Assembly (NCBI RefSeq): GCF_018336915.1
Contig: NZ_CP064923.1
Location: 510,001 to 542,000, forward strand
Length of the DNA: 32,000 bases
Direction: 5' to 3'
Origin: Acaryochloris marina S15
GTDB lineage: Bacteria > Cyanobacteriota > Cyanobacteriia > Thermosynechococcales > Thermosynechococcaceae
Shown here in pieces: positions 1 to 28,502 of the stretch. Below the pieces are notes generated by a model. The model made no database searches. It was not told the DNA's origin and saw nothing but the letters and a program-made list of their open reading frames with translations. The first letter of the stretch is position 1. Every line of letters begins with the position of its first letter. The position numbers and the translations under genes are program-made.

Positions 1-1009
1 GTTTCGCCTCAAGGATGGTCTGAATCTGGGGATTCCCATCGATACTGCTATTGAGGTCTTTGGCTTGGAGCAGCTCGCTCCCACGGTGGCTCAAGCGCCT
101 GAATCGGAGTCTCAACCCCCTGAGCCTGAGCCGCCAGCGGAAGAGACTCCCTCGCCTGAATCCGATTTGGCGAGCTTCACCTTTGAGGTTCTGGGGGTGA
201 ATGACAAGGGCCAGGTGCGTAAACGGACCCAACAGTCGGCCCAATACTATCGCCAACCCCTGGTAGAAGGAGTGGACTTGGAGATGGTGTCTATTCCAGA
301 GGGACAGTTCACGATGGGCTCCCCTGTGACCGAAACCCATCGAGAGAAAAACGAAGATCCCAAACATGTGGTGGATGTCCCTGGGTTTTTTATGGGGAAA
401 TATCCCATTACCCAAGCCCAATGGCAGGCCATTATGGGGGACAATCCCTCTAAATTTCAGGGGGCCAATCATCCCGTCGATCAGGTCAGCTGGTTTTTAG
501 CAGAAGAGTTTTGCCAAAAGCTATCGGTGGCCACGGGGCAGGATTACCGTTTGCCCAGCGAAGCGGAATGGGAATATGCAGCGCGAGCAGGCACCCACAC
601 GCCATTTCACTTTGGTAAGACTATCACCACAGATCTGGCCAATTACGACGGCAATTACACCTATGACAAAGGGCCGAAAGGAACCTTCAGACGAAAAACA
701 CTGGGAGTTGACCAATTCACGGGCAATGGGTTTGGCCTCTTCAATATGCATGGTCAAGTTTGGGAATGGTGTTTAGACCATTGGCATGATCATTACAAGG
801 GGGCTCCCACTGATGGCACCGCCTGGATTGAGAAAGGAGACCCGAAACTGCAGCGAGTACGACGAGGGGGATCTTGGTATGATAGCCCCCATGCTTGCCG
901 GTCTGCCTTTCGCTACCGTTCCCATCCTTATACCTATAAAAGTTCGTTTGGGTTACGGGTTGTCTTGCCAATCCTAAAGCCCTCGGTTGAGATAATTGCG
1001 GTGCCGTAG
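1..1009 (+). CDS. 3' portion of a trypsin-like serine protease / FGE-sulfatase (SUMF1-type) fusion protein; 5' end lies outside the window
   Basis: Frame 2 is open from base 2 (FRLKDGLNLGIPIDTAIEVFG). This aligns with VRIKDGLNLGIPINTAITAFG near the end of the protease domain of the 4904..6526 product, so the ATG at 65 is internal. A P/E-rich linker follows, then FGE-sulfatase motifs GKYPITQAQW, RLPSEAEWEYAARAG, MHGQVWEWCLD, RRGGSWY, GLRVV. Confidence 0.8.
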   Translation, partial: FRLKDGLNLGIPIDTAIEVFGLEQLAPTVAQAPESESQPPEPEPPAEETPSPESDLASFTFEVLGVNDKGQVRKRTQQSAQYYRQPLVEGVDLEMVSIPEGQFTMGSPVTETHREKNEDPKHVVDVPGFFMGKYPITQAQWQAIMGDNPSKFQGANHPVDQVSWFLAEEFCQKLSVATGQDYRLPSEAEWEYAARAGTHTPFHFGKTITTDLANYDGNYTYDKGPKGTFRRKTLGVDQFTGNGFGLFNMHGQVWEWCLDHWHDHYKGAPTDGTAWIEKGDPKLQRVRRGGSWYDSPHACRSAFRYRSHPYTYKSSFGLRVVLPILKPSVEIIAVP

Positions 1010-1363
1010 ATTCCCTAGGGAAGTAGAAAATATTGAGGGACGTATCCATGAGTTGTTCAGGGTCAACTCTTCCAGTCTCGGTATTAGACCTCTTGCAATA
1101 TGCGTTTCATGATGGGCTACCAACTCAATTTATGCCGCCCGTGATCTGACTTGGAGTACTAGGCCTCTACCATATCGGTAATTGAATTATGTAATAGGTC
1201 TAATGACATAACGATATGACTTGGGGTAGTGATCTAACGAAATCTTCAGTAGCGACAATGAGTCGTTTGCTGCAAAACATTGTTTGCTAACTCTTTCACT
1301 GGGGGCTGATCAACTGTATATCTATCTTGAGAAGCAGGTTGACGAACATTGCACCTCCTGTCT

Positions 1364-4363
1364 TCAGGGGTGTTCTGGCGCTGTAGCCAGTGACTTAAGA
1401 AGCTTCTGCAAACCAGCTTCGCGTTTTGTTTCTGGAAACAGATCGATGTGCTGAATCCGCTCCAATGTTCGCGTGTCGTCAATCTCAATGGGTGGAACAT
1501 CGCATTTCGCTAACCGCACGGGAAAGATGTAGGAATGTCCAGGGCCGAACTGTCTGAAGGTGGTAATTGCGTCGCGTATTTCGGGATAGACACCAGAACG
1601 ATAACGCTCCTTGGTCAAGTCCGGCGACAGGCAGACCACTACGGCATAGGCATTTTTCATCGCCTCGCGTATTGCTTCCTTCCAGTCACGACCGCCAAGA
1701 ATGAACTCATCCCACCACACTAATTCGCCTGCATTTCCCAGATCTTCAACCAGCCGCGAAACGTCGTCCTTGTTGTCGTGGCAATAAGATATAAAAACGT
1801 GCTTCTCTCCCATTTTTTTTCTCTCCTCTCGTCTTTGCCCTTGGCGTTTATTCTGATAGCGAATTGAATCGATGCCGTTCAGCAATTCTGTTACCGAATA
1901 GCATTTGTCCGCTCCAACCGGGAAGTACTTACTTTCACCATGTTCCCCCAGCTTCAAAAGGTGATCATACGGCACCGTAACGTCTGGTCTGTCTGGCAAT
2001 GGCACTTCCTCTGTGGGGGCCAGCGTCGGAATTGTCGAATGAACGTAACGGAAAGCGTCACGTACAACAGCAAGGCTTTCTTTCCGGTTCTTGATCGCTC
2101 CTTGCACCGCTATAAATACCTTGTTTTTCTCTATGTCTCCGCGAACAAGAACCGTGTTGCCATCAATCTTCAGTACTGTCCCGCTTCGCCAACTGAGATT
2201 TTGGTTCACATGCTGGTGCATCCGCACAATGAAGCGACAGATCACACCGGCTGGTAGGACAGTATAAGCATATTGGAAGTTCAATGATTCTTGAGGCTTC
2301 CATTGGAGCGTCTTAGGCTCTTTTGGGTCGAGCAGTTCCGGGATCAGCCAGTGTGTCTGCTTGCGATGATCAATTTGATAGGCCAACTCAAACTGCATCA
2401 TCTTGCGCACGATGAAATCATGACGGTTTTTGGGATATCCTTCAAGCGTGTTCAGCACTGCTGAAAGCTGCTGACAACTTAGGAGACCGTCTCGTTTCTC
2501 TTTCAGGTTCTTGTCATTGATGATTGCATAAACACCATCAGTTACCCATTCAGGATTGAGGACGTAGGGATCGTTCTGACCATAGGGATCGTCGGGGTCC
2601 TGGAAGTTAAGGACTACGCCTAGATCGTGCAGAAAACGGATCAAGCGATCTTGGTTTTCAGACTTCTTGACATTATAGCGACTGGAAATCTTACGATAGT
2701 CTTCAATTGGGATGTAGTTTCTCTCAGCCGCTGCCTGCTCTAGTTCGGCCATAACATCAAAGTAGCTCTGCGGCAGTTCATTAAAGACGTGCGGCAGGCG
2801 ACGGATATGCTTGCCGATCTCGCGGCGAAGTTTCGCGATTCCTTGGCCTGTGGAACAACTTGTCTGGATGAAACCTTGGATGTTCGGGTAGTCTTGTATC
2901 AGGCGCGTTTCATTCAGTTCGTGGGGATGCTGATCGCTTTTATTTATCACCACTAGCACGGGCGACTCACCCCCGTAGCTCTGGATGATCTTTAGCCAGT
3001 AATGGATGTTACTCTCCTTTTCGCCAGCGCGTGCGTCGATCACGAGGAGGTAGAGACTGCGGCGCGTGAGGAAAAACTGGTGCGTGGCGTGCATAATTTC
3101 CTGGCCGCCAAAATCCCAGATATGGACGTTGATCCGCTCGAACTTACCGCCAGTGCCTTTCTTGCCTTGGACGTCCCAGTTATCGATATTGATGCCTTCG
3201 GTCGGCAGCTCGCCAAGATTGCACGGCTTGTTTTGGATAAGGTAGTGAACCAGCGAAGTCTTGCCTACGCCACCCTGACCGACCAATAACATCTTCGCTT
3301 CGTTTAGCCGTCGCGCAGGTTCAGTCCGCGATTGCAAGTACCAGGCCAGGATTGACTTTGGATCGGCTGGAGCTTTCTCTCCGCTAAATGATATTGTAGA
3401 TTCAATCAAGGTCGGGCCAAGGACCTCTGGCGGAATGCCCAACGCCTCGTTGTCTTGGAGGAAGAGGCCTTCCAGTAACTCACAGTTGTCCAGCGACTCA
3501 GGCAGCGCCGTCAATTGGTTTGCTTCAAGATCAAGCAAACGTAGTTTTTTAAGCTGGTTGATTGATTTTGGTAATGTCTTCAGCTTATTAGTATTATCAC
3601 CCCAATATGTTTGACGATTCTGTTCCTTGACAAACTTCCCTAAGTAGAGATTCTGTAGATTCGAGAGAGAGCCTAGCCACCCCGGTAGCACTTCAAGAGA
3701 TGTCGTAGCAGCTCCAAGCGTGATCAACAGAGTGAGCCGTGCCAAAGATGATGGCAACTTTTTGAGTCGGTTACTTGAAATTTCTAATTCAGTCAGTTGT
3801 GTAAGCTGGCCCAGCGACTCCGGCAGCGCCGTCAGTTGGTTCCTGCTGAGGTTCAGCGATTGCAACTGGGAGAGCTGGCCCAGCGACTCCGGCAGCGCCG
3901 TCAGTTGGTTGTTGGTGAGGTCCAGCGTCTGCAACTGGGAGAGCCGACCCAACGACTCCGGCAGCGCCGTCAGTTGGTTGCTGCTGAGGTTCAGCGATTG
4001 CAACTGGGAGAGCTGGCCCAGCGACTCCGGCAGCGCCGTCAGTTGGTTGTTGCTGAGGTTCAGCGATTGCAACTGGGAGAGCCGACCCAACGACTCCGGC
4101 AGCGCCGTCAGTTGGTTGTTGGTGAGGTCCAGCGTCTGCAACTGGGAGAGCCGACCCAACGACTCCGGCAGCGCCGTCAGTTGGTTGCTGCGGAGGTTCA
4201 GCGATTGCAACTGGGAGAGCTGGCCCAGCGACTCTGGCAGCTCAGTAAGCTTTTCAGAGTTATCAGCATTCCAATTACATCTCAGATCGAGCTTGGTCGC
4301 TCCGGTATGCCGCGCTTCGGCGATTTTACGTTCGGCCTTTTGATATGGCGTTTCTGTTGCCAT
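1364..4363 (-). CDS. LRR - Roc GTPase - COR - TIR multidomain protein (ROCO family with C-terminal TIR effector)
   Basis: About eleven 23-aa LRRs (LTALPESLGxLSQLQxLxLxxNQ, aa 39-300). Roc G-motifs GQGGVGKTS (K368), DFGGQ (D417), NKSD (N474). COR-like region aa ~525-835 (LPQSYFDV, FLHDLGVVLNF). TIR-like domain aa ~853-980 (KHVFISYCHDNKDDV, WWDEFILGGRDW, SGVYPEIRDAI). Confidence 0.9.
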   Translation of the reverse strand: MATETPYQKAERKIAEARHTGATKLDLRCNWNADNSEKLTELPESLGQLSQLQSLNLRSNQLTALPESLGRLSQLQTLDLTNNQLTALPESLGRLSQLQSLNLSNNQLTALPESLGQLSQLQSLNLSSNQLTALPESLGRLSQLQTLDLTNNQLTALPESLGQLSQLQSLNLSRNQLTALPESLGQLTQLTELEISSNRLKKLPSSLARLTLLITLGAATTSLEVLPGWLGSLSNLQNLYLGKFVKEQNRQTYWGDNTNKLKTLPKSINQLKKLRLLDLEANQLTALPESLDNCELLEGLFLQDNEALGIPPEVLGPTLIESTISFSGEKAPADPKSILAWYLQSRTEPARRLNEAKMLLVGQGGVGKTSLVHYLIQNKPCNLGELPTEGINIDNWDVQGKKGTGGKFERINVHIWDFGGQEIMHATHQFFLTRRSLYLLVIDARAGEKESNIHYWLKIIQSYGGESPVLVVINKSDQHPHELNETRLIQDYPNIQGFIQTSCSTGQGIAKLRREIGKHIRRLPHVFNELPQSYFDVMAELEQAAAERNYIPIEDYRKISSRYNVKKSENQDRLIRFLHDLGVVLNFQDPDDPYGQNDPYVLNPEWVTDGVYAIINDKNLKEKRDGLLSCQQLSAVLNTLEGYPKNRHDFIVRKMMQFELAYQIDHRKQTHWLIPELLDPKEPKTLQWKPQESLNFQYAYTVLPAGVICRFIVRMHQHVNQNLSWRSGTVLKIDGNTVLVRGDIEKNKVFIAVQGAIKNRKESLAVVRDAFRYVHSTIPTLAPTEEVPLPDRPDVTVPYDHLLKLGEHGESKYFPVGADKCYSVTELLNGIDSIRYQNKRQGQRREERKKMGEKHVFISYCHDNKDDVSRLVEDLGNAGELVWWDEFILGGRDWKEAIREAMKNAYAVVVCLSPDLTKERYRSGVYPEIRDAITTFRQFGPGHSYIFPVRLAKCDVPPIEIDDTRTLERIQHIDLFPETKREAGLQKLLKSLATAPEHP
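3767..4249 (-). repeat. Seven near-identical 69-bp tandem coding repeats (one LRR each)
   Basis: The plus-strand motif cca(g/a)cgactccggcagcgccgtcagttggtt recurs at 3811, 3880, 3949, 4018, 4087, 4156 and 4225, an exact 69-bp (23-codon) period. Confidence 0.9.
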
Positions 4364-4439
4364 TGTCAGTCTTGCTTTAATATTTTTCCAGTTATACCTC
4401 GAAAAATGATGATTATCGAAAACTTAAAGCCTGATCTCT

Positions 4440-4521
4440 AAGGAAATGTCTGAGCGGTCTGCCAACCCGGCTTAAACAATAAGGAAATGTCTGAGCAGAC
4501 TGCCAACCCGGCTTGAACGAT
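4440..4521. repeat. Two tandem copies of a 41-bp intergenic direct repeat
   Basis: aaggaaatgtctgagcggtctgccaacccggcttaaacaat (4440..4480) is followed directly by aaggaaatgtctgagcagactgccaacccggcttgaacgat (4481..4521). The copies differ at a few positions only. Confidence 0.85.
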
Positions 4522-4903
4522 TCGGTCGAGGCAGAGACCTGAGTCTTTCCAGTTTATAGTTGCTGCCTTGACCGCAGTGTTGGCCATTGGTCCAAATCAT
4601 GGCTAGACGGTTTATGGTTCAACTCAGTGCAGGTTAAGTCACCACACTCAATAGCCATGCCGCTGCCAAGCAAGCGATCCGTTGTACATGATTCCAGCGA
4701 TCCCATTGAATTAAGAGAGCGACGCCATAGGGCTAAGCCTTGGGTGCACTTCGGATCGACCTGAAGCCACGGCGACTAAAGTCGCTCGCCGACAGGATTA
4801 CTATCAGCCAACCAGCCCGGATAGCCTTCTGAACCCGAGACATTCCTAAATTGAGCGGATACATTAGGAATAAGGGTTTTGCAGAGTATTGATATAGGTT
4901 GGA

Positions 4904-6526
4904 ATGGGCATTAAGCGACGTCAGTTTTTGTGGTTCGGGGGGACTGCTGTTCTTAGTTTGGCCTCTTCCCCATGGTCTTTAGCCAAGTCGGTGCGGGATA
5001 TTCGCCAAATTGCCCGCCGCATTACCGTTCGCATTATGACTCAAGGCCCCTCTGGTTCCGGGGTGTTGATCAAGCGGAATGACAATATCTACACCGTGCT
5101 AACGGCGGCCCATGTGATCAAAAACTCTAACCGGGGCGAGGAAGCCTATGTGGAAACCTATGACGGTGAAACCCATCTCCTCAACACTCAATTGATGCAG
5201 GTGGATGCCAAAGCGGATATTGCGATCGCAACCTTCACTACCAACAACAACTATCGCGTCACAGACATCGGCAAGTTTAAAAACCTCGGTATTTTGGATG
5301 ATATTTATGTGGGGGGCTATCCTCTAGCCGATCAGGCCATTTCCGTCTCCACCATTACCCTCACCCGTGGAGAGGTGGCCTCCATTGGTGAATTTGAGGA
5401 TGGCTATGGATTTTCCTACACCGCCGTCACCAAGGCAGGCATGAGTGGTGGCCCCGTATTGGATCGAGAAGGTCGTCTGATTGGCATTCATGGACGGGCA
5501 GCGGGGCGACGGCTCCAGGAGGTGCGGATTAAGGATGGCCTGAATTTGGGGATACCGATCAATACTGCGATCACAGCATTTGGCCTGGGTAATAAGTACA
5601 GGCCCCTCACTGCGGAGCAACCTGAAAACCCTGAACAACCTCCTTCTGAACCCACGGAAAAAGAGACCACGGAGGAGCCACCCGAACAGAAGACCCTGCC
5701 CGGACTGTCCCGGTTTGCCTTTGAAGTGGTTGGCGTCAATGCAACAGGCCAGATCCAAAAGCGAAGCCGTCAGTCTGCCCAGTATTATCGCCAAGATCTG
5801 AAAGAAGGACAGTCCCTGGATATGGTCTATATCCCTGGGGGACGGTTTAGCATGGGCTCTCCGGCGGCGGAAGCCAATCGCCAAAAAAGCGAAGGTCCCC
5901 AACATCAGGTGATAGTGCCCACCTTTTTTATGGGCAAATACCCCATTACCCAAGCCCAGTGGCAAGCGGTGATGGGTGAGAATCCATCGAAGTTTCAGGG
6001 GGCGAATCGTCCCGTTGAGCGAGTGAGTTGGGAAGCCGCCACGGAATTTTGCCAGAAACTTTCGGAACTCACGGGGCAGGAATATCGCTTACCCAGCGAG
6101 GCCGAATGGGAATTTGCCGCCCGCGCCGGGACGAGTTCTCCGTTTTGCGTCGGTGCAACCTTAACCACAGAGATAGCCAACTACGACGGCAACTATACCT
6201 ATGGTCGCGGCCCTCGTGGCACCTTTAGAAAGGCCACCACTCCTGTAGGCCAGTTTGCCCCTAATACATTGGGCCTCTACGACATGCATGGTCAAGTCTG
6301 GGAATGGTGCCAAGATCATTGGCATGACACCTATAAAGGAGCACCCACGAATGGATCGGCTTGGGTGAAGCAAGATGATCTGCGATCTCACCGGGTTCGA
6401 CGCGGGGGATCTTGGTACGATGGCCCTCATGCCTGCCGGTCAGCGTTTCGCTATCGCTCGTTGCCCAGCAACTTCCAGAACTCCTATGGCCTGAGAGTGG
6501 TGTGCCAAGACTTAAAGGATATTTAG
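4904..6526 (+). CDS. Exported trypsin-like serine protease fused to an FGE-sulfatase (SUMF1-type) domain
   Basis: Tat-like signal MGIKRRQFLWFGGTAVLSLASSPWSLA. Chymotrypsin-fold triad contexts TAAHV (His), ADIAIA (Asp), GMSGGPV (Ser). P/E-rich linker (PENPEQPPSEPTEKETTEEPPEQ). FGE-domain motifs GKYPITQAQW, RLPSEAEWEFAARAG, MHGQVWEWCQD, RRGGSWY, GLRVV. Confidence 0.85.
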   Translation: MGIKRRQFLWFGGTAVLSLASSPWSLAKSVRDIRQIARRITVRIMTQGPSGSGVLIKRNDNIYTVLTAAHVIKNSNRGEEAYVETYDGETHLLNTQLMQVDAKADIAIATFTTNNNYRVTDIGKFKNLGILDDIYVGGYPLADQAISVSTITLTRGEVASIGEFEDGYGFSYTAVTKAGMSGGPVLDREGRLIGIHGRAAGRRLQEVRIKDGLNLGIPINTAITAFGLGNKYRPLTAEQPENPEQPPSEPTEKETTEEPPEQKTLPGLSRFAFEVVGVNATGQIQKRSRQSAQYYRQDLKEGQSLDMVYIPGGRFSMGSPAAEANRQKSEGPQHQVIVPTFFMGKYPITQAQWQAVMGENPSKFQGANRPVERVSWEAATEFCQKLSELTGQEYRLPSEAEWEFAARAGTSSPFCVGATLTTEIANYDGNYTYGRGPRGTFRKATTPVGQFAPNTLGLYDMHGQVWEWCQDHWHDTYKGAPTNGSAWVKQDDLRSHRVRRGGSWYDGPHACRSAFRYRSLPSNFQNSYGLRVVCQDLKDI

Positions 6527-6545
6527 GGGCCGATTTGAGACCCAG

Positions 6546-9500
6546 TTAACCGACTAATTCCGGTGTCTTCTGGTCGATAAATCCGGCTAGGGTATCTAGT
6601 AATTCCTGCTCGTTAAACGGTTTAGAGAAATAGGCTGACGCCCCTAAGTTCATGGCGACTTTGCGGTGTTTCTCATGACTACGGGAGGTGAGCATGACAA
6701 TGGGTAAATCTTCAAATCGGCGCTGGCCTTTGACTTCTTCGAGGACACCGTAGCCATCCAGCCTCGGCATTTCAATGTCACAGACGACTGCCTGCACCGT
6801 TAAGCCACTTTCCAGCTTATCAACGGCTTCTTGACCATCCCTGGCCTGCTCAACCAGATAGCCTGCTTTTTCCAGGGTCATGGCTAGGAAGCGACGAACA
6901 TTAACCGAGTCATCCACCACGAGGACCGTATTGCCTTGGCTGGCTTGGGACACTGGTTCCACCGATGCTGCGATTAGACCGGATTGTTCGCGCTCTAGGC
7001 ACCATTTGAGCACAGGCAATGGATCAATAATCGGGACGACCCGGCCATCCCCTAATACCGTAGAGCTAACGAATCCAGGCGGCATGGGTAAGGGGCTGTC
7101 GATGTTGCGAATCGTGACTTCTTGTTCCCCCCAGAATCGCTCAATTTCCAGGCCGCCCACAGTGGATTCTTCGCCAACCACTAGAACCGTGGGTTGATTA
7201 ATAACGGGTGTTCCCAACATTTCGGAGAATTTGCGGGTTTGGCTAAAGGCCCAGTGCCTCGCCAAATTCATCACTGGAATGGACTGATCCTGCCAGGTCA
7301 ATTTTTGAGTCTGTTCAATCGTGTGGAGTTGGTCTGCCTCTATGCGCAGCAGTTCGCGGATGTTGTCTACGGGCACTGCAAAAATTAAGCCAGAATGCTC
7401 CAAGAGCATGACTCGCAGAACCGAAAGGGTATAGGGGACCGTAATTGTAAAGGTGGTGCCGACACTGCGTTCGGTGTTTACATAAATATCGCCTCGGATG
7501 TCCCGGAGGTTGGTTCGCACCACATCCATACCCACGCCTCGACCTGAAATCTCAGTCACTTGGTCAGCAGTACTAAAGCCGGGTTCAAAGATACAGTCCA
7601 GTAAGTCCTGATCCGACATCTGCAAGACTTCTGATTCGGTGAGTCCCATGGATTGCAGGCGATTGCGCACCTTATCCAACCGGATGCCAGCCCCATCATC
7701 GCTAATGGTGATGACGGTTTGAGCTCCTCGGTTCCGAGCTTTAATCGTAATCTTGCCTTCGGGTGCTTTGCCAATGGACAGCCGACGCTCTTGGCTGCCA
7801 ATCCCATGGTCAAAGGCATTCCGCAACAGGTGGTTGAGGGCATCCCCTAGGGATTCAAGCACGGACCGATCAATCAGGGTGGCATCCCCTTCCATGACCA
7901 AGTTCACGGGCTTATTGAACTGAACGCTCAAATCCCGAATCACCCGTGGGAATCGCTTGACGATCTCTCTAAAGGGCACCATCTGGGTGCGGGTGACATT
8001 GGTCTGCAACGAGCGGGTGGTTTGGTTAATGTCTCGAACGGCCTGACCCATGTCTTGCAGGGTCAAGTTAATATCTGAGCCCACCTCTTGCAGTTGGACA
8101 ATCGTTTCAATTTGGTCTTGGGCAATCAGGTGTAAGTCGGTATATTGGTCCATTTCTAGGGCATCAAATTGCCCTGGCCTGGGTTCGGCGATTTGTTCGG
8201 GCTGAGCGGGGGCAGCTGCCTCTGCCGGGACAATTCCTTCCAGGGAGGCTCGGTCATACCATTGCTGCAATTGGGTATTGGATGCTTCTAGTTGTTGAAT
8301 CCGCTGTCGAATCAGTTGGGTATAGGTTTGCAACTGCTCAAAGCGCAGATTGACGGTATTCCGTTCCAGAATCAGTTTCCCAAACAGGGCGTTAAATTGC
8401 TCCAGTTGTTCCACCGGAACCCGCACGGTTTTACCGCTTAACGGCTTTGCTGCTGGTGCAGCGGCAGGCTGGTTGGCCGTGGCTTGTTCCAGAATTTGAG
8501 CGGCACTCTCAAGGGTTAATGGCAGTTCAGAAGGGATAGGACTCTCTGCAGCCGGATTAATGGTGGGAACAGGATTCTCAGGACTTGTTGCAACCACTGG
8601 TTCGGGTAGGGAAACCCCAAGATCCGCGTCAATGGCAAATGCGTCCTGTAGATCCGCAAGCTCCATCGAGTCTTGCAAATTGATGAGATCATCTGCATTT
8701 AATAGGTCATCTGCAGGGATCTCCGCTGGGATGTCAAAGTCAGTTGTATTGAATAAGTCATCTGTAGGGATCTCCGCCGGGATGTCAAAGTCAGCAGCAG
8801 GTAACTCAATGGATAAGGCATTGGCTAAGTTGGCGATGGCCGGATCATTGAGGGAAAGCTCGTCCAGATTGACTGTTTCTAGCGGTTCGGGGCTAGGCAG
8901 ATCCGTGGCTAAAGCTTCGGCTAGGTCAGCTACGGCGGGATCATCTGCAAAAGAGATGGCCTCTGCAGGTAGCTCTGGGGGCATGTCAATCGCGCCAAAG
9001 TCTGCTTGCAGAGCCGACAAGTCCACTAAGTCTAGGGCATTTTCAAAGTCAATTTCAGGACTGGAAGCGATATTGGGCGTAAAGTCCGGAAGCTGGTGGG
9101 GCAGCTTCTCAAAGCTGCGTCGCAGCACCAAGGCATGGGACCGTCGCCAGGTTTTGAGGGCGGCAGTGGATAGTTCTGGAATTTGCTCGGGGATAACTTG
9201 GGGGGCTAGTTCCTGGACGGATTGGCAGAGCTGAATAAAAGGCTCTAAATTCGCCATATGACCAAAAGCCACCAGTTCTTCTGCCGTCATGGCCAGCTCT
9301 GCAGCGAGCTGAGGGGCAGGCAAGGTCTCAAAATAGCCTTCAATCCGATCGAGAACGGCTTCCACGCCATCCTCAAACATCAGTAGTGCCGGATCCGTTT
9401 CATCCTCGTCGCCGTTGAGCAGCGCCGTCTCGTCCTCGTCCGTGACATCCCCTAAATGAACTTGCAGTTGGTCAAAGACGGGATAAATTTGTTCTGCTAG

Positions 9501-9848
9501 CCAGGCTGCATCAATTTCGGCTCCTTGCCGATAGCGATCACCCACCTGTCGCAAGCAATCTAAACCCTGCAATAGCAAGGTCTCTACCTCCGTTTCGATG
9601 GTTTTGGAGGCGTGATGCACCCGCAAGATTTTGAAGAAGTCTTCTAGACGGTGGGCCACTTTACTCAGATCCATCAGCCCCATCATGGCCGCTCCCCCCT
9701 TAACGGTGTGGGAGGCTCTGAGGGCTTCGTCCAGTTGCTCTGGTTCAGCAACGTTTGCTGCTAGACCCAGCAAAGCCCGTTCAATCCTGTCGTAACAATC
9801 TTCTGCTTCTTCGAGAAATTTGAACTGGACTTGTTGTTCTTTATCCAT
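6546..9848 (-). CDS. cheA: CheA-type hybrid histidine kinase (Hpt, acidic linker, HATPase, CheW-like, receiver); PilL/HmpE/TaxAY-like
   Basis: N-terminal Hpt (ALRASHTVKGGAAMMG), a ~300-aa acidic low-complexity linker, kinase core (ISDDGAGI, GRGVGMDVV), a CheW-like domain and a C-terminal receiver (VLVVDDS, CDIEMPRLDG, FSKP). It is the last gene of a PatA-CheY-CheW-MCP-CheA operon. Confidence 0.85.
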   Translation of the reverse strand: MDKEQQVQFKFLEEAEDCYDRIERALLGLAANVAEPEQLDEALRASHTVKGGAAMMGLMDLSKVAHRLEDFFKILRVHHASKTIETEVETLLLQGLDCLRQVGDRYRQGAEIDAAWLAEQIYPVFDQLQVHLGDVTDEDETALLNGDEDETDPALLMFEDGVEAVLDRIEGYFETLPAPQLAAELAMTAEELVAFGHMANLEPFIQLCQSVQELAPQVIPEQIPELSTAALKTWRRSHALVLRRSFEKLPHQLPDFTPNIASSPEIDFENALDLVDLSALQADFGAIDMPPELPAEAISFADDPAVADLAEALATDLPSPEPLETVNLDELSLNDPAIANLANALSIELPAADFDIPAEIPTDDLFNTTDFDIPAEIPADDLLNADDLINLQDSMELADLQDAFAIDADLGVSLPEPVVATSPENPVPTINPAAESPIPSELPLTLESAAQILEQATANQPAAAPAAKPLSGKTVRVPVEQLEQFNALFGKLILERNTVNLRFEQLQTYTQLIRQRIQQLEASNTQLQQWYDRASLEGIVPAEAAAPAQPEQIAEPRPGQFDALEMDQYTDLHLIAQDQIETIVQLQEVGSDINLTLQDMGQAVRDINQTTRSLQTNVTRTQMVPFREIVKRFPRVIRDLSVQFNKPVNLVMEGDATLIDRSVLESLGDALNHLLRNAFDHGIGSQERRLSIGKAPEGKITIKARNRGAQTVITISDDGAGIRLDKVRNRLQSMGLTESEVLQMSDQDLLDCIFEPGFSTADQVTEISGRGVGMDVVRTNLRDIRGDIYVNTERSVGTTFTITVPYTLSVLRVMLLEHSGLIFAVPVDNIRELLRIEADQLHTIEQTQKLTWQDQSIPVMNLARHWAFSQTRKFSEMLGTPVINQPTVLVVGEESTVGGLEIERFWGEQEVTIRNIDSPLPMPPGFVSSTVLGDGRVVPIIDPLPVLKWCLEREQSGLIAASVEPVSQASQGNTVLVVDDSVNVRRFLAMTLEKAGYLVEQARDGQEAVDKLESGLTVQAVVCDIEMPRLDGYGVLEEVKGQRRFEDLPIVMLTSRSHEKHRKVAMNLGASAYFSKPFNEQELLDTLAGFIDQKTPELVG
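8706..8794 (-). repeat. 51-bp (17-codon) tandem duplication inside the CheA acidic linker
   Basis: gtcatctgcagggatctccgctgggatgtcaaagtcag (8706..8743) and gtcatctgtagggatctccgccgggatgtcaaagtcag (8757..8794). They encode DFDIPAEIPTDDL / DFDIPAEIPADDL. Confidence 0.85.
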
Positions 9849-9944
9849 GGTGCTCAGGTGATATTGAGTCGCTAATATCGATGGGGTTCATCCGGCTGCT
9901 AATCTCAAGTCAGGGGGACCGATAGAAGAACGATCCTAAATTCG

Positions 9945-12365
9945 TTAGCTAGATTCTTCGACTTTAAACTGGGCCACAGCGGCTTCCAGCTTCTGGGCAA
10001 CGGCAGCCGTGTCTTGCATGGACTGGGCCATTTTGTTAGAAGATTCCGACCGCTGTTCGGACAATTCTGCCATCTGAGACATCAAAGTGGTCACTGCTTT
10101 TGAGGTTTCAGTCTGGGTCTCAGTTGCGTCAGAAATGGACCGCATGAGGTCGTTGATCTCTTGGGACCGAGTCAGTACTTGGGTCAGCTTCTCTTTGGTC
10201 GTTTCCACCAGGCGAGTACTATCCACCACCTGGGTGGTCCCTACTTCCATCGCCTCCGTCACTTCCTTGGTCTCGGCTTGAATTCCAGCCACAATTTGAG
10301 CGATTTCTTTCGTCGCCGCAGTGGACTGTTCCGCTAGGGCACCCACCTGTTCTGCAACCACGGTGAAACCTTGACCCTGTTCACCGGCACGACTGGCCTC
10401 AACACTGGCGTTAATGGCGAGTAGGTTGGTTTTGAGAGCGATTTCTTCAATCAAGGACACCACCTGAGAAATCTTTTGGGAGGATTCACCCAGTCGCTTA
10501 ATTTTCTTGGAGGTCTCACCGACCGTATTTCGCAGGCCGAGGATACTGTCTACCGTCTGATCCATGGCATTACTGCCTTCTTGGACCGTCGTGTAGGCTT
10601 CATCGGAAATCACAGCGGCTCGACCGGCGTTGCTGGCTACATCCTCAATGGAGACGGACATTTTCTCAATCGAATCGAGGGTGGTTCGGGCTTGCTCAGT
10701 TTCTTGGACGGCTTGCTCCGCTAGGGTCTGAATCTCGGTTCCGTTTGCACCGAGGGAGGAACTCACCTGTACAGAGGACTCTTTTACCTGACCCGCAATC
10801 TCGTTGAGGTTGTCGATAATGGCGTTGAACAAGTCAGCAACGGTACTCATTTCCATCGAGTTTAAGCTGGCGCGTACGGTTAAGTCGCCATCTACCGCTT
10901 CTCCCACTTCGTCGAGGAGCTGGTAGATTTCCATTTCTAGTTTGTCGCGGGATTCTTTTTGTTCTTGAGCGGCTTGTTCCGTTTTGTTTAAGAGGGTCTG
11001 GACCTCGGACACTAGGTTGTTGAAGGTCCGGGCTAGGATTCGGGTTTCGCGGGTTCCTTCAATATCAGCTCGGACATTTAAGTTTCCTTCTGCCGCTTCG
11101 TCGGCGGTGCCCGTTAGCTTAGTTAGAGGATTGGACAAGCTAGTGGAGAGCCAGTAGATCAAGGCGGTGACAATACCCGCCATGAGTAAGCCTGTTAAGG
11201 CAAATACGATTAACTGCTCTCGGGCTGCTGCCGCTTCTTCAGCGGTTTCAACGGATGCGATCGCAACCAGTTTCGTGAACGGAACAATCGATAGGGTAAA
11301 GAATCGGTCTTTGTAAGTAAAGGAAGCAGTTAGTAGCTTAAATTTACCCGCATCTTTTTCTTTGATTTCTACCTCTTTAATCCCAGGAATATTCTCAATC
11401 TGAGCTTTAGTGGCATTCAGATCACCCGACTCAGCTGCCAAGTAATCTTCGATCAGCTTGGCGGTAGCTAGAACGTCCTCGCCTCCGGTCACCTCTTGGT
11501 TGGTCGTATCACTACCCGTTTTGGTGATGGTATTCACCACTGGCCTGGTTTCCAGCTTCGGGTCAACCAGCTGCACAATCTCAGACTCCGTTAGGTTGGG
11601 AGTAATCAGTGTACTAATAGCCTCATCCAGTGCCTTTGTGGGGAGGCCAATTTTGGTCACCCCAATAAAATTGCCTGAGTCATCCGTAATCTGCTTGGAC
11701 AGGGCAAGCACAAAGGTCTGAGAAGAGTCGTCAAATTCAGGCTCTTCAATAAATTGCCCCTTTTCTTTGGCCTGCTGCCACCAGTTTTCATCGTTCTGAA
11801 CAAAGTCAGAGGTGGGAGCACTATAGGCAACATTAAAGCCATTTTTATCTGTCACAAAGACTTCGGCCAGGTCAACGTTCTTAACGACCCGCTGCAGGTA
11901 TGCATTCAGTTTGGCATTGGGCTTTAGCAGCTTGGTGCTAGCAAACTGAGCTTCGACTGCCTCAATCGGCTTTTGAGTCAGTCCCTGGGTTTCCGCCTGT
12001 TGGGCTCCAGCCTTGACCGCCTCTAGCAACAAGGGGTCACTACCGATCAGATCCGGGAACTTCAGGGTGTCTAGCAAGAAGAGGGTGCTGGCCTCACTGG
12101 TCAGGAGACTGACTTCCTCTAACTGCAGCAACGCTTTTGCTTTCAATTCTGCCTCTGTTCGGGTGTAACCAATCGCACTAGCGACCGCCAGGGGCACCAA
12201 GGCAACGGGCAGAACTGTGGTCAACAATCGTTGGCGTAGGGTTGCTGCGGGCTTGGCTGTTTCCATCTCAACAGAAGTGGCCTCGTTAGTACCATTCAGT
12301 TGGTCTTCTATGCTGTTGCCGTTGGTAGAAGCGTCAGCAGGGGAAGTGTCCTTTTGGGTAGTCAT
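9945..12365 (-). CDS. Methyl-accepting chemotaxis protein (TM, ~330-aa periplasmic sensor, TM, HAMP, MCP signalling domain); PilJ/HmpD-like
   Basis: Conserved MCP hairpin [41 protein letters not shown]. Two hydrophobic segments ([21 protein letters not shown]; [21 protein letters not shown]) flank the sensor. No GAF/phytochrome-like region was seen. I prefer the ATG at 12365 (MTTQKD) to the GTG at 12413 used by the ORF track. Confidence 0.85.
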
Positions 12366-12448
12366 GGTCCTGGTTAAATCGGTAAAAGAATAAGTACTCT
12401 CAACTGCCAGCACGAGGTTGACAGATTAAACATCAAACGCGGCTCACA

Positions 12449-13015
12449 CTATGCCGAGTACAATGCCGGCGATTTTGCTAAGGCTGGAGGATAAAAGATA
12501 TACATGAGCTGATCTCCCTGTTGGCAAGCACCTGTAATGTAGGGAGCTAGGTTTGCCGGACAAAAGGTGGGATCCGTTTGTAATTGTTCTTCACTTAGAC
12601 GGGTGACCCCTTGAATTTGGGGAACCGCTAACCCCAACAGGGCATCACCATCCCCCGCCGCCTGATACTCAGAGCGAGGCACCCGCACCACAATCACACG
12701 GTATTGCCGTTGAGTGCCCGTCACATCTGGATAGCCCAATATCTGAGGCAGGTTGACCACACAGAACACCTGCTCCCGGGAATTGATTAGACCTAGGACG
12801 GGTCTGGCCATATTCGGCATAGCCGTAATCTGTTCTGCTGCCACAATCAGGGATTCATGAACATGCTCCATCGAGAGTAAGGCACCCATGCCCTTAGTCA
12901 ATAAAAACCGTAAATAGGGTTGTCCCGATAGTTGGGTAGCCTGAAATAGCTGGGGTAGAAGCTCTTGCAGTCTCGCTAGAGATGTTGTCGAAGCAGTGGG
13001 TTTTTGAGTCGTCAT
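12449..13015 (-). CDS. cheW: CheW-like coupling protein (PilI/HmpC-like)
   Basis: 188 aa with a single CheW-like domain pattern, located between the CheY and MCP genes. Its ATG (13015) directly abuts the stop of the upstream CheY gene (13016), which suggests translational coupling. Confidence 0.75.
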   Translation of the reverse strand: MTTQKPTASTTSLARLQELLPQLFQATQLSGQPYLRFLLTKGMGALLSMEHVHESLIVAAEQITAMPNMARPVLGLINSREQVFCVVNLPQILGYPDVTGTQRQYRVIVVRVPRSEYQAAGDGDALLGLAVPQIQGVTRLSEEQLQTDPTFCPANLAPYITGACQQGDQLMYIFYPPALAKSPALYSA

Positions 13016-13381
13016 TTATTTCATGGCCGCTCTCAGGGCACTTACCAGTTCTTGCTTGGTGCAGGGTTTGGTGACATAGGCTTCAATGCCCTGCTTGGCT
13101 GCCCACATCCGGTCCACATCCCGATCTTTAGCAGTACAGGCTACGACTGGGATATCAGCGGTTTCAGGATTCTTGCGCAGCTTACGGGCCAGGTCCAAGC
13201 CTCCCATCTCTGGCATCATCCAGTCGGTGACAATAGCATCTGGCTTGTTCTGGTTGACCTTCTCTAAGGCTTCTGCGCCATTCGTGGCCGTGACGATGGT
13301 ATAACCTTCTTCTGTGAGGTATTGACAGATTAAGTCGAGTTCAGATTGCAGGTCATCAACGACTAAGATTTTGCTGCTCAT
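13016..13381 (-). CDS. cheY: Single-domain CheY-like response regulator (PilH/HmpB-like)
   Basis: 121 aa. Receiver signature KILVVDD, phospho-acceptor context IVTDWMMPEMGG, VVACTAK, YVTKP. Confidence 0.9.
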   Translation of the reverse strand: MSSKILVVDDLQSELDLICQYLTEEGYTIVTATNGAEALEKVNQNKPDAIVTDWMMPEMGGLDLARKLRKNPETADIPVVACTAKDRDVDRMWAAKQGIEAYVTKPCTKQELVSALRAAMK

Positions 13382-13501
13382 GGTGTGTCCTTGAATGGCT
13401 AGGTAAGCGTAAACGAGAAAGTAATCTGGAGAAACTGGAATCCATTCGGTACAGGAGGAATAGGCTACCTAAACCCGCAACATGGGGCAGTGCCGAGACC
13501 G

Positions 13502-14737
13502 CTAAGCTGGCGTAAATTGAGTCAGATACTTCTCTACCATGTCCATTAGCCCTTTCTGGGTAAAAGGTTTGGTGAAGTAATCTGTGGCACCTGCTAATTT
13601 GGCCCGAGCCTTGTCAATCAGTCCGGTATTGCCCGTCACCATAATGATCGGAGTCTCATCAAACACAGCACTGCTTCTCAGCAAGCTGCATAGGCGATAG
13701 CCATTGATCTTGGGCATGGTGATGTCTAACAAAATGAGATCGGGCTTAATCCGGAAGATCACAGAGGATGCCTGGATTGGATCGTCTACCGTTGTGACCT
13801 CGTAACGAGTGTTCCCCAAACATCGCTCAATCTCACTCAAGATCGTGGGACTATCATCAATGCAAACAATTTTGAAGGTTCTATTCGCGTCCTGGGCGGC
13901 TTGAGCCGCTTGGGCGACCGAGGGTATTTTGGGAATAGCCGGAACCGGAACCCGAGGTAATTGGTCAAAAGGCGGTTGTGGATTCCGCAGAAAAATCACC
14001 TGTTGCTCCACATAAGGACCAAAGAGTTGGGCGATATGTAGCTCGTCCTGTTTCAACAAAACGGATAGCTGACGGATACTAAACCCTCGACTCATCAACT
14101 GAGCGAGTTTGGTCAGGGCTTCTGGCGATAGCTTGCCACCCGCAACGGGCTTGCTAATGTGTTGGAAATCTAAAAGATAAGGGCGTTGATAGGGAGAACA
14201 AATATCCTTACAGCAACTTTGCCAGCTCTTCATTCGATGCTTGAGGAACCGGACTGTATCGACCAATTCCATCAGTGGGGTTGCCCCTAAGACCTGGGTC
14301 ACCCACTCTGGAGACGTGACGCCATTCTCCCAAACCGCTTTGGCTTGCCTGAGCCATAAAAAGGTTTCTAGGGCGTCTTGGGTAATATCTTCAATAATCT
14401 GTCGAGCTTGGATCTCATTCAACATCTGTTGCTCTTGCAGCCACAACATTGAACGCTGAATCAGTCCTTGAGCTTTGATTGCTGTACTGTCCCCATCTAT
14501 CTTCTGCTGAGGAGGCATCTCTTTGAGGGCATTAAAGGCGGGCTCTAATCCTTGGCGGCACAGAAAGTAGCTCAGTTGGGCAAGGGTTTGGACGGAGCAA
14601 TCTACATACTGCAGCTCACCTTCCTTCAAGTAAATATGCCAAATAGATTTACCATTACTGGCTTTGAGAACACCACTAGCTTGAGAGCTTGATAACTCAG
14701 TAAGCAGCTGATACGGATCAAACTTTGTGGTTTCCAT
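13502..14737 (-). CDS. PatA-type response regulator (N-terminal PATAN-like domain plus C-terminal receiver); PilG/HmpA-like
   Basis: C-terminal receiver (KIVCIDDSPT, LILLDITMPKINGY, IIMVTG, YFTKP) preceded by a ~280-aa non-receiver N-terminal region. It is the first gene of the chemosensory operon, the arrangement known for cyanobacterial Tax/Pil/Hmp loci. Confidence 0.8.
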   Translation of the reverse strand: METTKFDPYQLLTELSSSQASGVLKASNGKSIWHIYLKEGELQYVDCSVQTLAQLSYFLCRQGLEPAFNALKEMPPQQKIDGDSTAIKAQGLIQRSMLWLQEQQMLNEIQARQIIEDITQDALETFLWLRQAKAVWENGVTSPEWVTQVLGATPLMELVDTVRFLKHRMKSWQSCCKDICSPYQRPYLLDFQHISKPVAGGKLSPEALTKLAQLMSRGFSIRQLSVLLKQDELHIAQLFGPYVEQQVIFLRNPQPPFDQLPRVPVPAIPKIPSVAQAAQAAQDANRTFKIVCIDDSPTILSEIERCLGNTRYEVTTVDDPIQASSVIFRIKPDLILLDITMPKINGYRLCSLLRSSAVFDETPIIMVTGNTGLIDKARAKLAGATDYFTKPFTQKGLMDMVEKYLTQFTPA

Positions 14738-26663: not shown

Positions 26664-28502
26664 CTAATCTCGTTGAATAAGTTGGGCCGCAATCCAGCCC
26701 CGTACCCCTGACTGAGGAAACAATACCTCATACCAGAGGTAGCCACCGCCATCCTTACGTTGACCGACAATGCGAACGCGATCGCCAGGGTAAGCCATAT
26801 GTTTAGTCGAGAATTTTGTCCCCGGCCCTGTCCGAATATTTTTACTTTCTGGGCTTCCTACTATCGCCGCATTGGTGTTCGAAGGCGTGGGCGTGGGCGT
26901 TGGTTTTGGAGAGGGTTGCGCGGCTTGATCAGCTTTAACTAACTGTGCTGCAATCCACCCCTGTGCCTGGGATTCAGGAAAGTAGACGTTATGCCAGAGG
27001 AAGCCGCCCTGATCGCGATCGCTTGTAACAATCGTGATCCGATCGCCTGGGTAAGCCAGATGGGTTTGAGCATAGTTTGTCCCGGGACCAGACCGAATAT
27101 TTTTGGAACCAGGATCTCCTGCAATCCGGGCATTCGTTTGATCGGCATTAGGGGGTAATGCGATCTCAACCGGAGGAGGTGGGATGGGTCGAGTCACCTG
27201 GCTTGTACTGTCATTGGTGGGATTGGACGGGGACGTACTCACGGCTGTATCGGACGTAGAACGGTCTGTATCTGCAGTGGGTGAAGGTGAATTGCGAGTG
27301 AGTAGATCCGAAACCTGACCTCGCAAGAGGACTGCACTCACCAATACAAATACCCCAATCACACTTCCTGTGAGGATGGCTTTTTGCCATTCTGGAAACC
27401 GAGCTGGGTTGACGGTGGGGGGTACGGATGGGTGTTGCGGAACAACGGCTTGAGTCGGCTCAGATACAGCTGGTTCAGAGGAAGCTGAAACAGGAGTTTC
27501 GGCGGTAGGAATGGAGGGCTGTTGGAGGGTATGAGAGACGATATCTGTGGCTTCTACACCCACTGGAGTGGTGGCTTGATTAGCGAGGATCTCTAGATTC
27601 TGGGCACTTGCGTCCTGGACGACATCCACCACATGGGTTGCCGGGAGCACCAAATGATTCATCATGGCTACCGCACTGAGAAACCGTTCATTGGGCTGAG
27701 GGTGAATGGCCTGACTCAGGGTGGCAGAAAATTCTGAGGTGAGATTAGGCACTAAATGCTGCCAAAGAAGCATCCCCGTTTGCGGATCGGTTTCGAGTTC
27801 TTGAGGGATTTTAAGGGTGAGGAGATAGATGGCCGTGAGACCCAAGCTATATAGATCACTGCTGTAGACCGGACGTCCTGCCAGTTGCTCCATAGGCATA
27901 TATCCGGGGGTTCCTACCACAATGGAGCGATTCGTTTGTCCTTGGGAATTCACTACCGTGCTCATGGTCTCTTTAACGGCCCCAAAGTCGATTAGGTTGG
28001 GTATTCCGTCCTTTTGGCGCAAGATAATGTTGTCGGGTTTAATATCTCGATGAACAATCCGCTGTTGGTGAATATAGTCGATGACCGGCAAGAGCTTGAT
28101 CAAGATATCTCGCACTTCTGCCTCACTGAGGGGGCCATGCTGCATTTTCTGGGTCAGGGTTTGACCCGCCACCCACTCTTCCACCAGGTAAAACTGGCCG
28201 GCTTCTTCTAAAAAAGCGTAAAGCATCGGAATTTGGTCATGGCTTTCTCCTAAACGCTCTAGGATGGCAGCCTCCCTCTGAAATCGATCCTTCACCAATT
28301 GGTAAATCTGAGGATTATTATCAATGGGCTTCAACTGCTTGATCACGCATTGGCGGCGGGAGGGCATTTGAGTGTCTTCTGCCAAAAAGGTGGTGCCAAA
28401 TCCACCATCACCAAGGACTTTAATGACCCGGTAGCGGTTATTGAGTAAGGTTGGGGTTTGAGGGGTTTGCACATTGGGAGTATTGGTACCGGAATTCGTC
28501 AT
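26664..28502 (-). CDS. Hanks-type Ser/Thr protein kinase with a TM segment and two C-terminal SH3b-like domains
   Basis: GDGGFGTTFLA (G-loop), CVIKQL (Lys), HRDIKPDN, DFG, GTPGYMPMEQ. TM AILTGSVIGVFVLVSAVLL. Two repeats: G(D/S)P(G/E)SKNIR(S/T)GPGT...YPGDR(I/V)...GWIAAQL. Confidence 0.9.
   Translation of the reverse strand: MTNSGTNTPNVQTPQTPTLLNNRYRVIKVLGDGGFGTTFLAEDTQMPSRRQCVIKQLKPIDNNPQIYQLVKDRFQREAAILERLGESHDQIPMLYAFLEEAGQFYLVEEWVAGQTLTQKMQHGPLSEAEVRDILIKLLPVIDYIHQQRIVHRDIKPDNIILRQKDGIPNLIDFGAVKETMSTVVNSQGQTNRSIVVGTPGYMPMEQLAGRPVYSSDLYSLGLTAIYLLTLKIPQELETDPQTGMLLWQHLVPNLTSEFSATLSQAIHPQPNERFLSAVAMMNHLVLPATHVVDVVQDASAQNLEILANQATTPVGVEATDIVSHTLQQPSIPTAETPVSASSEPAVSEPTQAVVPQHPSVPPTVNPARFPEWQKAILTGSVIGVFVLVSAVLLRGQVSDLLTRNSPSPTADTDRSTSDTAVSTSPSNPTNDSTSQVTRPIPPPPVEIALPPNADQTNARIAGDPGSKNIRSGPGTNYAQTHLAYPGDRITIVTSDRDQGGFLWHNVYFPESQAQGWIAAQLVKADQAAQPSPKPTPTPTPSNTNAAIVGSPESKNIRTGPGTKFSTKHMAYPGDRVRIVGQRKDGGGYLWYEVLFPQSGVRGWIAAQLIQRD

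Follow-up and report, generated by a model that had tools for sequence, protein, structure and literature searches.

We analysed a 32,000-nucleotide stretch of the Acaryochloris marina S15 genome (contig NZ_CP064923.1, positions 510,001 to 542,000; hereafter the window) and detected a gene for a leucine-rich repeat (LRR) protein of the ROCO family that probably acts as a stand-alone, single-gene counter-invader protein. The open reading frame (ORF), 1364..4363 on the minus strand, is complete with an ATG start and encodes 999 amino acids (aa), with LRR, Roc, COR-A, COR-B, and TIR following one another on a single polypeptide (ROCO-TIR). The protein is built like a nucleotide-binding LRR receptor (NLR), with a Roc-COR GTPase in the place of the ATPase of signal transduction ATPases with numerous domains (STAND), and it may act through NAD+ depletion and abortive infection. 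The gene is monocistronic, with gaps of 540 bp upstream and 354 bp downstream, and its product is 100% identical to the NCBI entry 'COR domain-containing protein [Acaryochloris marina]'. A class of counter-invader systems that combine a fast-evolving LRR, an AP-GTPase (= Roc), COR, and a variable C-terminal effector has been predicted by Kaur, Iyer, Burroughs, and Aravind (eLife 2021, PMC8195603, Fig. 6D), and the protein shares with it the N-terminal LRR followed by AP-GTPase, COR, and an effector from the conflict repertoire, here a TIR.

The LRR, Roc, COR, and TIR calls of an initial annotation of this DNA agree with Pfam, with a search of PDB sequences, and with AlphaFold2 (AF2) models compared by Foldseek. 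Every Pfam match passed the curated cut-offs: LRR_8 (1.2e-33), LRR_14 (1.7e-31), and LRR_4 over aa ~38-300; Roc over aa 357-477 (2.7e-28), alongside Ras (2.1e-11) and the NCBIfam model small_GTP (1.8e-13); COR-A over aa 531-678 (2.3e-41); COR-B over aa 692-830 (1.2e-32); and TIR_2 over aa 856-989 (6.2e-21). The PDB search matched aa 344-840 to Chlorobium tepidum Roco (CtRoco; 6hlu, 8r4b, and 3dpu) with E values of 4e-85 to 9e-69 and matched LRRK2 at ~1e-50; chance is no explanation for any of these assignments or matches. The full-length AF2 model, with a predicted local distance difference test (pLDDT) score of 83, comprised ~12 LRR units, a Ras-like fold, COR-A/B, and a TIR, and its best Foldseek match was the CtRoco LRR-Roc-COR crystal structure 6hlu (4e-40). 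Neither NACHT nor NB-ARC was matched in Pfam or NCBIfam, and the protein is not a STAND/NLR member; the presence of a Ras-like GTPase fits the earlier proposal that Roc-COR replaces the STAND ATPase.

The GTPase motifs were conserved across 56 relatives, in an alignment reaching down to ~42% identity. The P-loop residues G362, G364, V366, G367, K368, and T369 were invariant, as were the WDFGGQ motif from W416 through Q421 and N474 of G4; K475 was at least 90% conserved, and the switch-I Thr of G2, T388, was present and invariant or nearly so. Because these residues are invariant or nearly so over such a range of relatives, the GTPase appears to be under purifying selection. The residue numbers first given for K368, D417, N474, and E928 (codon 1580..1582) proved exact. 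When the AF2 model was compared by Foldseek, the RocCOR substructure matched CtRoco 3dpu at TMt 0.79 and COR-B matched the COR domain 3dpt at TMt 0.85. Roc is followed by COR-A and COR-B contiguously over aa 357-830 and the guanine-nucleotide motifs G1, G2 Thr, G3, and G4 are intact, features that by sequence make the protein a member of the ROCO family, with GTP binding predicted. In characterised Roco proteins, COR-B is the dimerisation module. In CtRoco, GTP drives the transition from a closed dimer to an open monomer, opening the LRR-Roc hinge (PMC11052575).

The LRR region evolves far faster than the rest of the protein, with identities to orthologues of 43-66% compared to 83-90% in Roc, 65-83% in COR-A, 70-82% in COR-B, and 72-87% in the TIR. 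AF2 modelled aa 24 to 301 with 12 LRR beta-strands in regular strand-helix units at pLDDT >90, so the eleven repeats counted initially were correct to within one unit. The length of the region ranged from 151 to 426 aa among orthologues, mostly in 23-aa steps, and in the window protein six LRR units are coded by near-identical tandem DNA that can be described either as 69 bp x 6.3 at 90-97% identity or as 207 bp x 2.1 at 96%. By their sequence, these tandem repeats are a predicted substrate for the gain and loss of units by recombination. The divergence, the 23-aa length steps, and the near-identical tandem units together indicate that the LRR behaves as expected of a recognition surface, and its rapid evolution, seen both in the identity comparison and in copy number, is shared with the class of Kaur et al. 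2021.

The TIR begins at K854-H855-V856-F857, as previously annotated, and is linked to COR-B by a predicted helix (aa 834-853). A TIR-only AF2 model (pLDDT 73) had the beta-alpha order A-E of the flavodoxin-like TIR fold, and its best Foldseek matches were SARM1, SPARTA TIR-APAZ, AbTir, and Hydra TRR-2 (template modelling scores, TM, of 0.57-0.67, with probability 1.00 for the first three); most of the structural matches were NAD+-consuming TIRs. AbTir was also matched by phmmer at ~1e-5. Among the defence-system models of PADLOC-DB v2.0.0, matches were confined to the TIR part of the protein (aa ~827-994) and comprised a pAgo-associated TIR (2.2e-10), SAVED-TIR, and weak hits to ThsB (E ~0.008-0.013). 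E928 was invariant across 45 orthologous 90%-clusters, as were F857, S859, Y860, W883, W884, D885, G891, D893, K895, S913, R920, and G924, and both E928 and the WW motif were invariant in 46 proteins of other architectures carrying the same TIR subfamily. In pairwise comparison with AbTir by phmmer, E928 falls on the Glu of 'WTNYELDG', and the query carries three inserted residues ahead of this position; in the AF2 models E928 begins the helix after beta-C. We consider E928 likely to be the catalytic Glu, and together the models and conservation support a TIR of the enzymatic type with putative NADase activity.

The effector position varies among Roc-COR relatives, a further feature of the class of Kaur et al. 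2021. In the next tier of relatives, the Roc-COR is 50-55% identical and is followed not by the TIR of the window protein but by other C-terminal modules. The most widespread is a ~125-aa tail with two hydrophobic helices, found in 32 clusters of LRR-Roc-COR relatives. This tail (P0049-P0060 and others) is unannotated and has neither a Pfam nor a PADLOC family; it is probably a membrane-disrupting effector. A conserved C-terminal domain of ~165 aa occurred in 13 clusters (P0088, P0095, P0100-P0106, and others) and weakly matched LmuA in PADLOC (E 2.4e-4), with no Pfam or PDB sequence match; a 'GIDL...QCK' motif in it may point to a nuclease of the PD-(D/E)xK type. Five clusters had a helical tail, and other related Roc-COR proteins ended in a different TIR_2, an AAA_21/ABC-type ATPase, or a PNP_UDP_1 nucleosidase-type domain.

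The TIR subfamily is promiscuous between architectures. In a representative library of 1.84 billion proteins, we found the same subfamily at 45-58% identity in N-terminal or C-terminal position or alone, in proteins of 147-1568 aa. Partners among 46 sampled proteins were cNMP-binding domains (6), TPR (4), and MalT-TPR (3), followed by HEAT, FGE-sulfatase, GAF-cyclase, and NACHT at 2 each, with kinase, WD40, and LRR also present. One toxic-type module on many sensor chassis, combined with one chassis bearing many modules, is the signature of a conflict system. Distant LRR-Roc-COR-TIR proteins, 25-26% identical to the window protein, were also present on IMG/VR contigs. One of these (L015 5388-11523, IMGVR_UViG_2884371665_000002) encodes a 1843-aa LRR-Roc-COR-TIR whose LRR region is very long and, behind it, a second protein of 160 aa that is a TIR on its own; both TIRs match the ThsB model (1.9e-38 and 1e-33), and this could be a version of the architecture with two TIRs.

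Comparison with other Acaryochloris genomes revealed that the gene is strain-variable. In the window, ROCO-TIR is flanked by two tandem paralogues encoding Trypsin_2 plus FGE-sulfatase (FGS, C-type-lectin fold), whose FGS parts are 70-75% identical in DNA. In Acaryochloris sp. 'Moss Beach' (CP071717.1, L017), the Trypsin-FGS neighbour is 99% identical and two Trypsin-FGS paralogues lie 124 bp apart with no ROCO-TIR gene between them; the truncated left paralogue of the window (2-1009) aligns with the 534-aa paralogue of this strain. By blastn, window positions 4821-8000 aligned to 'Moss Beach' at 97.3% and positions 1-970 at 83%, with nothing in between. Because only the flanks align, positions 971-4820 of the window, 3.85 kb holding this gene only, replace 62 bp of 'Moss Beach'. 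The gene was also absent from the syntenic site in two other Acaryochloris-like contigs (L018/L019). We found no tRNA, integrase, transposase, or inverted repeats in the 3.85-kb segment, and no convincing target-site duplication beyond a 7-bp TCCTAAA that is perhaps due to chance; a deletion in 'Moss Beach' instead of a gain in the window strain could also explain the difference. Upstream of ROCO-TIR, the intergenic part of the segment contains two tandem copies of a 41-nt direct repeat that are 90% identical to each other (window 4439-4520); the repeat could be a regulatory site or an insertion remnant. In 'Moss Beach', the two tandem Trypsin-FGS genes are preceded ~1.5 kb upstream by an IS256-family transposase (Transposase_mut, 3482-4720 of L017), which suggests that this part of Acaryochloris genomes is prone to rearrangement.

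Outside Acaryochloris, the closest homologues, at ~82% identity over Roc-COR-TIR, were on contigs with planctomycete-type neighbours (sulfatases, DUF1570) and in a Pirellulales metagenome-assembled genome (MAG), and named relatives belonged to Planctomycetaceae, Planctomycetota, and Abditibacteriaceae. A scan of the genome-contig collection returned only two loci, in the Pirellulales MAG and an 'Alcaligenaceae' MAG contig; no Acaryochloris representative was among them, which fits a strain-variable presence. From these sequence comparisons, ROCO-TIR is an accessory, horizontally exchanged gene and not a cyanobacterial family.

Across eight orthologue contexts there was no conserved synteny, and the ROCO-TIR gene stood alone in each. 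The prediction that homologues would be found beside defence genes and outside conserved housekeeping synteny was borne out in part: no conserved housekeeping synteny was seen and some orthologues had defence neighbours, but three (L004, L007, and L022) had housekeeping neighbours only. An HTH_17 gene and a type I restriction-modification system were directly beside one orthologue (L020), a RAMP (CRISPR-type) gene cluster was 4 kb from another (L009), and a third lay in an island with HNH, two NucS_C, and DUF4258/DUF2442 small toxin-antitoxin-like genes (L021). RelB and a Y1 transposase were near two more (L005 and L003, respectively). Further afield, an IMG/VR contig classed as viral (L014 4338-10952, IMGVR_UViG_3300028585_000519) carries a fused PARIS AriAB (PADLOC 1.7e-133) and an AriA/OLD-like ATPase, and a distant LRR-Roc-COR-TIR gene (26% identity) follows immediately downstream; the arrangement looks like a defence island on a mobile element. 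These defence-gene neighbourhoods are anecdotal but suggestive of a defence role.

We suggest that the fast-evolving LRR solenoid would hold the protein in an autoinhibited state and recognise an invader-derived or infection-induced ligand. Ligand binding would free the LRR-Roc hinge and shift a GTP/GDP-dependent conformational and oligomeric Roc-COR cycle, as in CtRoco, and this shift would change the pairing or assembly of the TIRs tethered by the helix behind COR-B. The TIR enzymes of SARM1, AbTir, SPARTA, and plant TIR-NLRs (TNLs) need TIR-TIR assembly for their active site. Assembled ROCO-TIR proteins may build an active site around E928 and consume NAD+, and the resulting depletion would stop the infected cell from growing or kill it, an abortive-infection outcome. 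In this scheme we infer what the LRR binds, which way the switch runs (dimer ON or monomer ON), that the TIR is a NADase, and that a phage phenotype results. The sensor-switch-effector logic proposed initially is supported by conservation, by effector swapping, by accessory and horizontally transferred status, and by some of the defence neighbourhoods. The narrower possibility of a GTPase-gated innate immune receptor, a functional NLR analogue evolved on a Ras-like Roc-COR scaffold in which the hypervariable LRR directly binds a phage protein and a GTP-driven monomer/dimer cycle licenses TIR NADase assembly, is less likely than not and should be held only tentatively.

Coordinates of the ROCO-TIR gene, its domains and motifs, and adjoining features in the window
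Feature	Position	Strand	Evidence
ROCO-TIR ORF, 999 aa	1364..4363	-	ORF list, Pfam, identical NCBI entry
LRR solenoid, aa ~24-301, ~12 repeats of 23 aa, presumed sensor/ligand-binding surface	3461..4294	-	Pfam, AF2
Tandem DNA repeats coding LRR units	3804..4241	-	69 bp x 6.3 or 207 bp x 2.1
Roc small GTPase domain, aa ~350-525	2789..3316	-	Pfam Roc, Ras; NCBIfam small_GTP
G1/P-loop GQGGVGKTS, aa 362-370, K368	3254..3280	-	Conserved in 56 relatives
G3/switch II DFGGQ, aa 417-421	3101..3115	-	W416-Q421 invariant, 56 relatives
G4 NKSD, aa 474-477, guanine-specificity motif	2933..2944	-	Conserved in 56 relatives
COR-A, aa 531-678	2330..2773	-	Pfam; Foldseek to 3dpu
COR-B, aa 692-830	1874..2290	-	Pfam; Foldseek to COR domain 3dpt
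TIR domain, aa 854-999, presumed NAD+-consuming effector	1367..1804	-	Pfam TIR_2, AF2 and Foldseek, phmmer
E928 codon, candidate catalytic Glu	1580..1582	-	Conservation, pairwise alignment to AbTir
Strain-specific segment, 3.85 kb, ROCO-TIR gene and flanks only	971..4820		blastn vs Acaryochloris sp. 'Moss Beach'
Trypsin_2 + FGE-sulfatase protein, divergent neighbour (context)	4904..6526	+	Pfam
Second Trypsin-FGS paralogue, C-terminal part, cut by window edge (context)	2..1009	+	Open frame, paralogue alignment

The trypsin part of the 4904..6526 product is similar to the LmuA, RT-protease, and Avs1b protease domains, and no reverse transcriptase was present among the scanned window ORFs of at least 120 aa. 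The Trypsin-FGS architecture has reportedly been placed by Aravind's group among cyanobacterial conflict-system components, often diversified by diversity-generating retroelements. Beyond it lies a chemotaxis-like operon (window 6546-14737, minus strand) encoding a PatA-type DUF4388 response regulator, a CheY-like response regulator, CheW, a methyl-accepting chemotaxis protein with dCache/HAMP, and a hybrid CheA with Hpt, CheW, and receiver domains, an arrangement typical of cyanobacterial Pix/Tax phototaxis clusters. This operon is kept in other Acaryochloris strains with or without ROCO-TIR. We rejected an obligatory link of ROCO-TIR to either the operon or the Trypsin-FGS genes, as both occur without it in other strains and the orthologue contexts lack them. 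At 18733-22689 (plus strand), we observed a 1318-aa protein that is mostly coiled coil with a C-terminal BRCT, in a region with an AT skew of 0.27-0.37 and a negative GC skew; its PADLOC assignment to LmuB/JetC was rejected as coiled-coil similarity only. A Ser/Thr protein kinase with C-terminal SH3_3 domains (26664-28502, minus strand) matched PD-T4-6 in PADLOC at 2.7e-102, but it sits among housekeeping genes (VanY, MenC, MenE-like) and the match was set aside as probably generic kinase-domain similarity. An Rfam scan of the window yielded nothing, and a promoter/terminator scan performed no better than shuffled expectation.

Several observations weigh against a counter-invader role exerted through NAD+. 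The immediate neighbours of ROCO-TIR in the window are not classical defence genes, and one side adjoins the chemotaxis-like operon; among orthologues, recognisable defence genes lay within 10 kb in only ~3-4 of 9 contexts (plain counts), the others being housekeeping. No PADLOC model matched the full length of the protein, which agrees with the initial expectation that no known system would cover it, and an incomplete literature search found no experimental work on any bacterial ROCO-TIR or on a ROCO anti-phage function. The remaining points concern E928. The alphaC segment that carries it (aa 916-932) has a pLDDT <50 in both AF2 models, the profile-to-PDB alignments of the TIR end at beta-C/alphaC before reaching it, and the sequence, which reads G924-V-Y-P-E928, lacks the W of the usual WxxxE motif. 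For these three reasons, the catalytic-Glu assignment is likely and not proven.

The same sensor and switch could instead control a TIR that makes a signal, such as a cyclic ADP-ribose (cADPR) isomer or related nucleotide, for a receptor or effector encoded elsewhere, as in Thoeris. Many bacterial and eukaryotic TIRs do make signalling nucleotides, most of the tested eukaryotic TIRs left NAD+ undepleted (bioRxiv 10.64898/2026.04.20.719644), and the distant IMG/VR ROCO-TIRs include strong ThsB matches (1.9e-38), with a stand-alone TIR gene next to one of them in L015. Against this, the window protein itself matches ThsB only marginally (E ~0.008), it scores best, both in structure and in PADLOC, against NAD+-depleting TIRs (SARM1, SPARTA, and pAgo-associated TIR), and no ThsA-like gene (SIR2, SLOG, macro) or other receptor is conserved in the window or the eight orthologue contexts. 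We favour direct NAD+ depletion because no partner gene is conserved nearby, and regard a signal-making TIR as unlikely, though a live rival.

Less likely still is a non-immune regulatory ROCO, in which the GTPase would be a scaffold for a stress response, programmed cell death or differentiation, or motility and the TIR a protein-protein interaction module. Prokaryotic Roco proteins have no known function, some TIRs act as adaptors, several orthologue contexts are purely housekeeping, and the gene adjoins the Pix/Tax-type operon. That link is not conserved, since the operon is present without the gene in other Acaryochloris genomes, and a strain-specific gene common to different phyla at ~82% identity fits poorly with a regulatory role, as does a candidate catalytic Glu that is invariant even in unrelated architectures. 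The replacement of the TIR by membrane, PNP, or nuclease-like modules is also more typical of toxic effectors than of adaptors. Finally, a multi-gene system with the flanking Trypsin-FGS proteins, in which FGS would be an extra invader sensor and trypsin a second effector or activator, would account for the position of ROCO-TIR exactly between the two paralogues and divergent from one, for the listing of FGS, trypsin, TIR, and AP-GTPase alike as cyanobacterial conflict-system components (PMC7159879, PMC8195603), and for the fusion of the same TIR subfamily to FGE-sulfatase in 2 of 46 sampled proteins, but it is very improbable given that the pair occurs without ROCO-TIR in 'Moss Beach', a single copy does so in L018/L019, and none of the eight orthologue contexts has an FGS or trypsin neighbour; insertion into a variable spot explains the adjacency best.

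If the proposed mechanism of a ligand-released Roc-COR switch and a TIR NADase is true, Ras-like GTPases would be a third nucleotide-switch class in bacterial pattern-recognition immunity, beside STAND ATPases and cyclic-nucleotide sensors, and the LRRK2/DAPK family would be tied to an ancestral function in immunity or cell death, a case that Aravind's group has made from sequence alone. A soluble bacterial protein of 999 aa with an NAD+ readout could serve as a model for how a fused enzyme is governed by GTP binding, dimerisation of COR, and release of the LRR, and would be the first tractable system for Roc-COR control of a fused catalytic domain, with a bearing on LRRK2 regulation. Acaryochloris offers a natural experiment, as two close strains differ by a 3.85-kb cassette holding only ROCO-TIR.

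Compared to known systems, the window protein has the LRR-Roc-COR core in common with CtRoco (6hlu, 3dpu, 8r4b) and with LRRK2/LRRK1, but COR is followed by a kinase and WD40 in LRRK2 and directly by a TIR here. To our knowledge, CtRoco has no known output enzyme and no established biological role. The initial annotation knew of no characterised ROCO defence system, and this stands for ROCO-TIR, for which we found none, but not for ROCO proteins as a whole: the gasdermin-activating protease of Runella, a Roc-COR-CHAT cell-death component, has been the subject of laboratory work (Johnson et al., bioRxiv 10.1101/2021.06.07.447441). The Runella protein is likewise a bacterial ROCO with a cell-death effector after Roc-COR, although its caspase-like CHAT protease acts on a gasdermin encoded by another gene, so that the system has two genes, whereas the window protein has a TIR and no conserved partner.

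Plant TIR-NLRs and bacterial Avs, bNACHT, and STAND-TIR proteins follow the same logic of a repeat sensor, an NTP switch, and a TIR effector. Their switch is an AAA+ ATPase, while that of the window protein is a Ras-like TRAFAC GTPase with COR, and the plant TNL order of TIR, nucleotide-binding domain, and LRR differs from the order of sensor, switch, and C-terminal TIR effector found here, so a ring-shaped resistosome assembly cannot be assumed. The window TIR resembles the TIRs of SPARTA, SARM1, AbTir, and Pycsar/CBASS effectors in structure and in having a conserved Glu, here the candidate catalytic residue, and the cNMP-binding fusions of its subfamily (6 of 46 sampled) resemble Pycsar-type effectors; the activating modules of these NAD+-depleting TIRs are different, responding to guide RNA and target DNA, the NMN/NAD+ ratio, or cyclic nucleotides. 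Eukaryotic TIRs, in listed architectures that include LRR/Roc/COR, are Glu-dependent cADPR producers (bioRxiv 10.64898/2026.04.20.719644). Thoeris has a TIR domain in common with the window protein and is matched only weakly through ThsB, and with no ThsA-type gene (SIR2, transmembrane, or macro with SLOG) beside ROCO-TIR in the window or orthologue contexts, the system is not Thoeris.

The closest precedent is the AP-GTPase counter-invader class, for which at least 24 alternative C-terminal domains have been listed, including TIR, DRHyd, caspase, trypsin, FGS, and GT4 (PMC8195603); the same group had already placed AP-GTPase-COR and FGS domains in cyanobacterial conflict systems (PMC7159879, 2020). 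The layout is that of the window protein, and both LRR variability and effector swapping are reproduced here, so the ROCO-TIR architecture is unsurprising to a specialist. The initial claim of an undescribed system cannot be upheld, as the LRR-AP-GTPase-COR-TIR class was already predicted; by comparison of sequences, the functional logic appears well supported and the novelty claim does not. Because the class is known in silico, the value of this protein lies in experimental validation and not in the discovery of an architecture. The earlier work was computational only and included neither the window protein nor its TIR subfamily, and to it we add a strain-specific insertion, transfer between planctomycetes and a cyanobacterium, and the promiscuity of the TIR subfamily.

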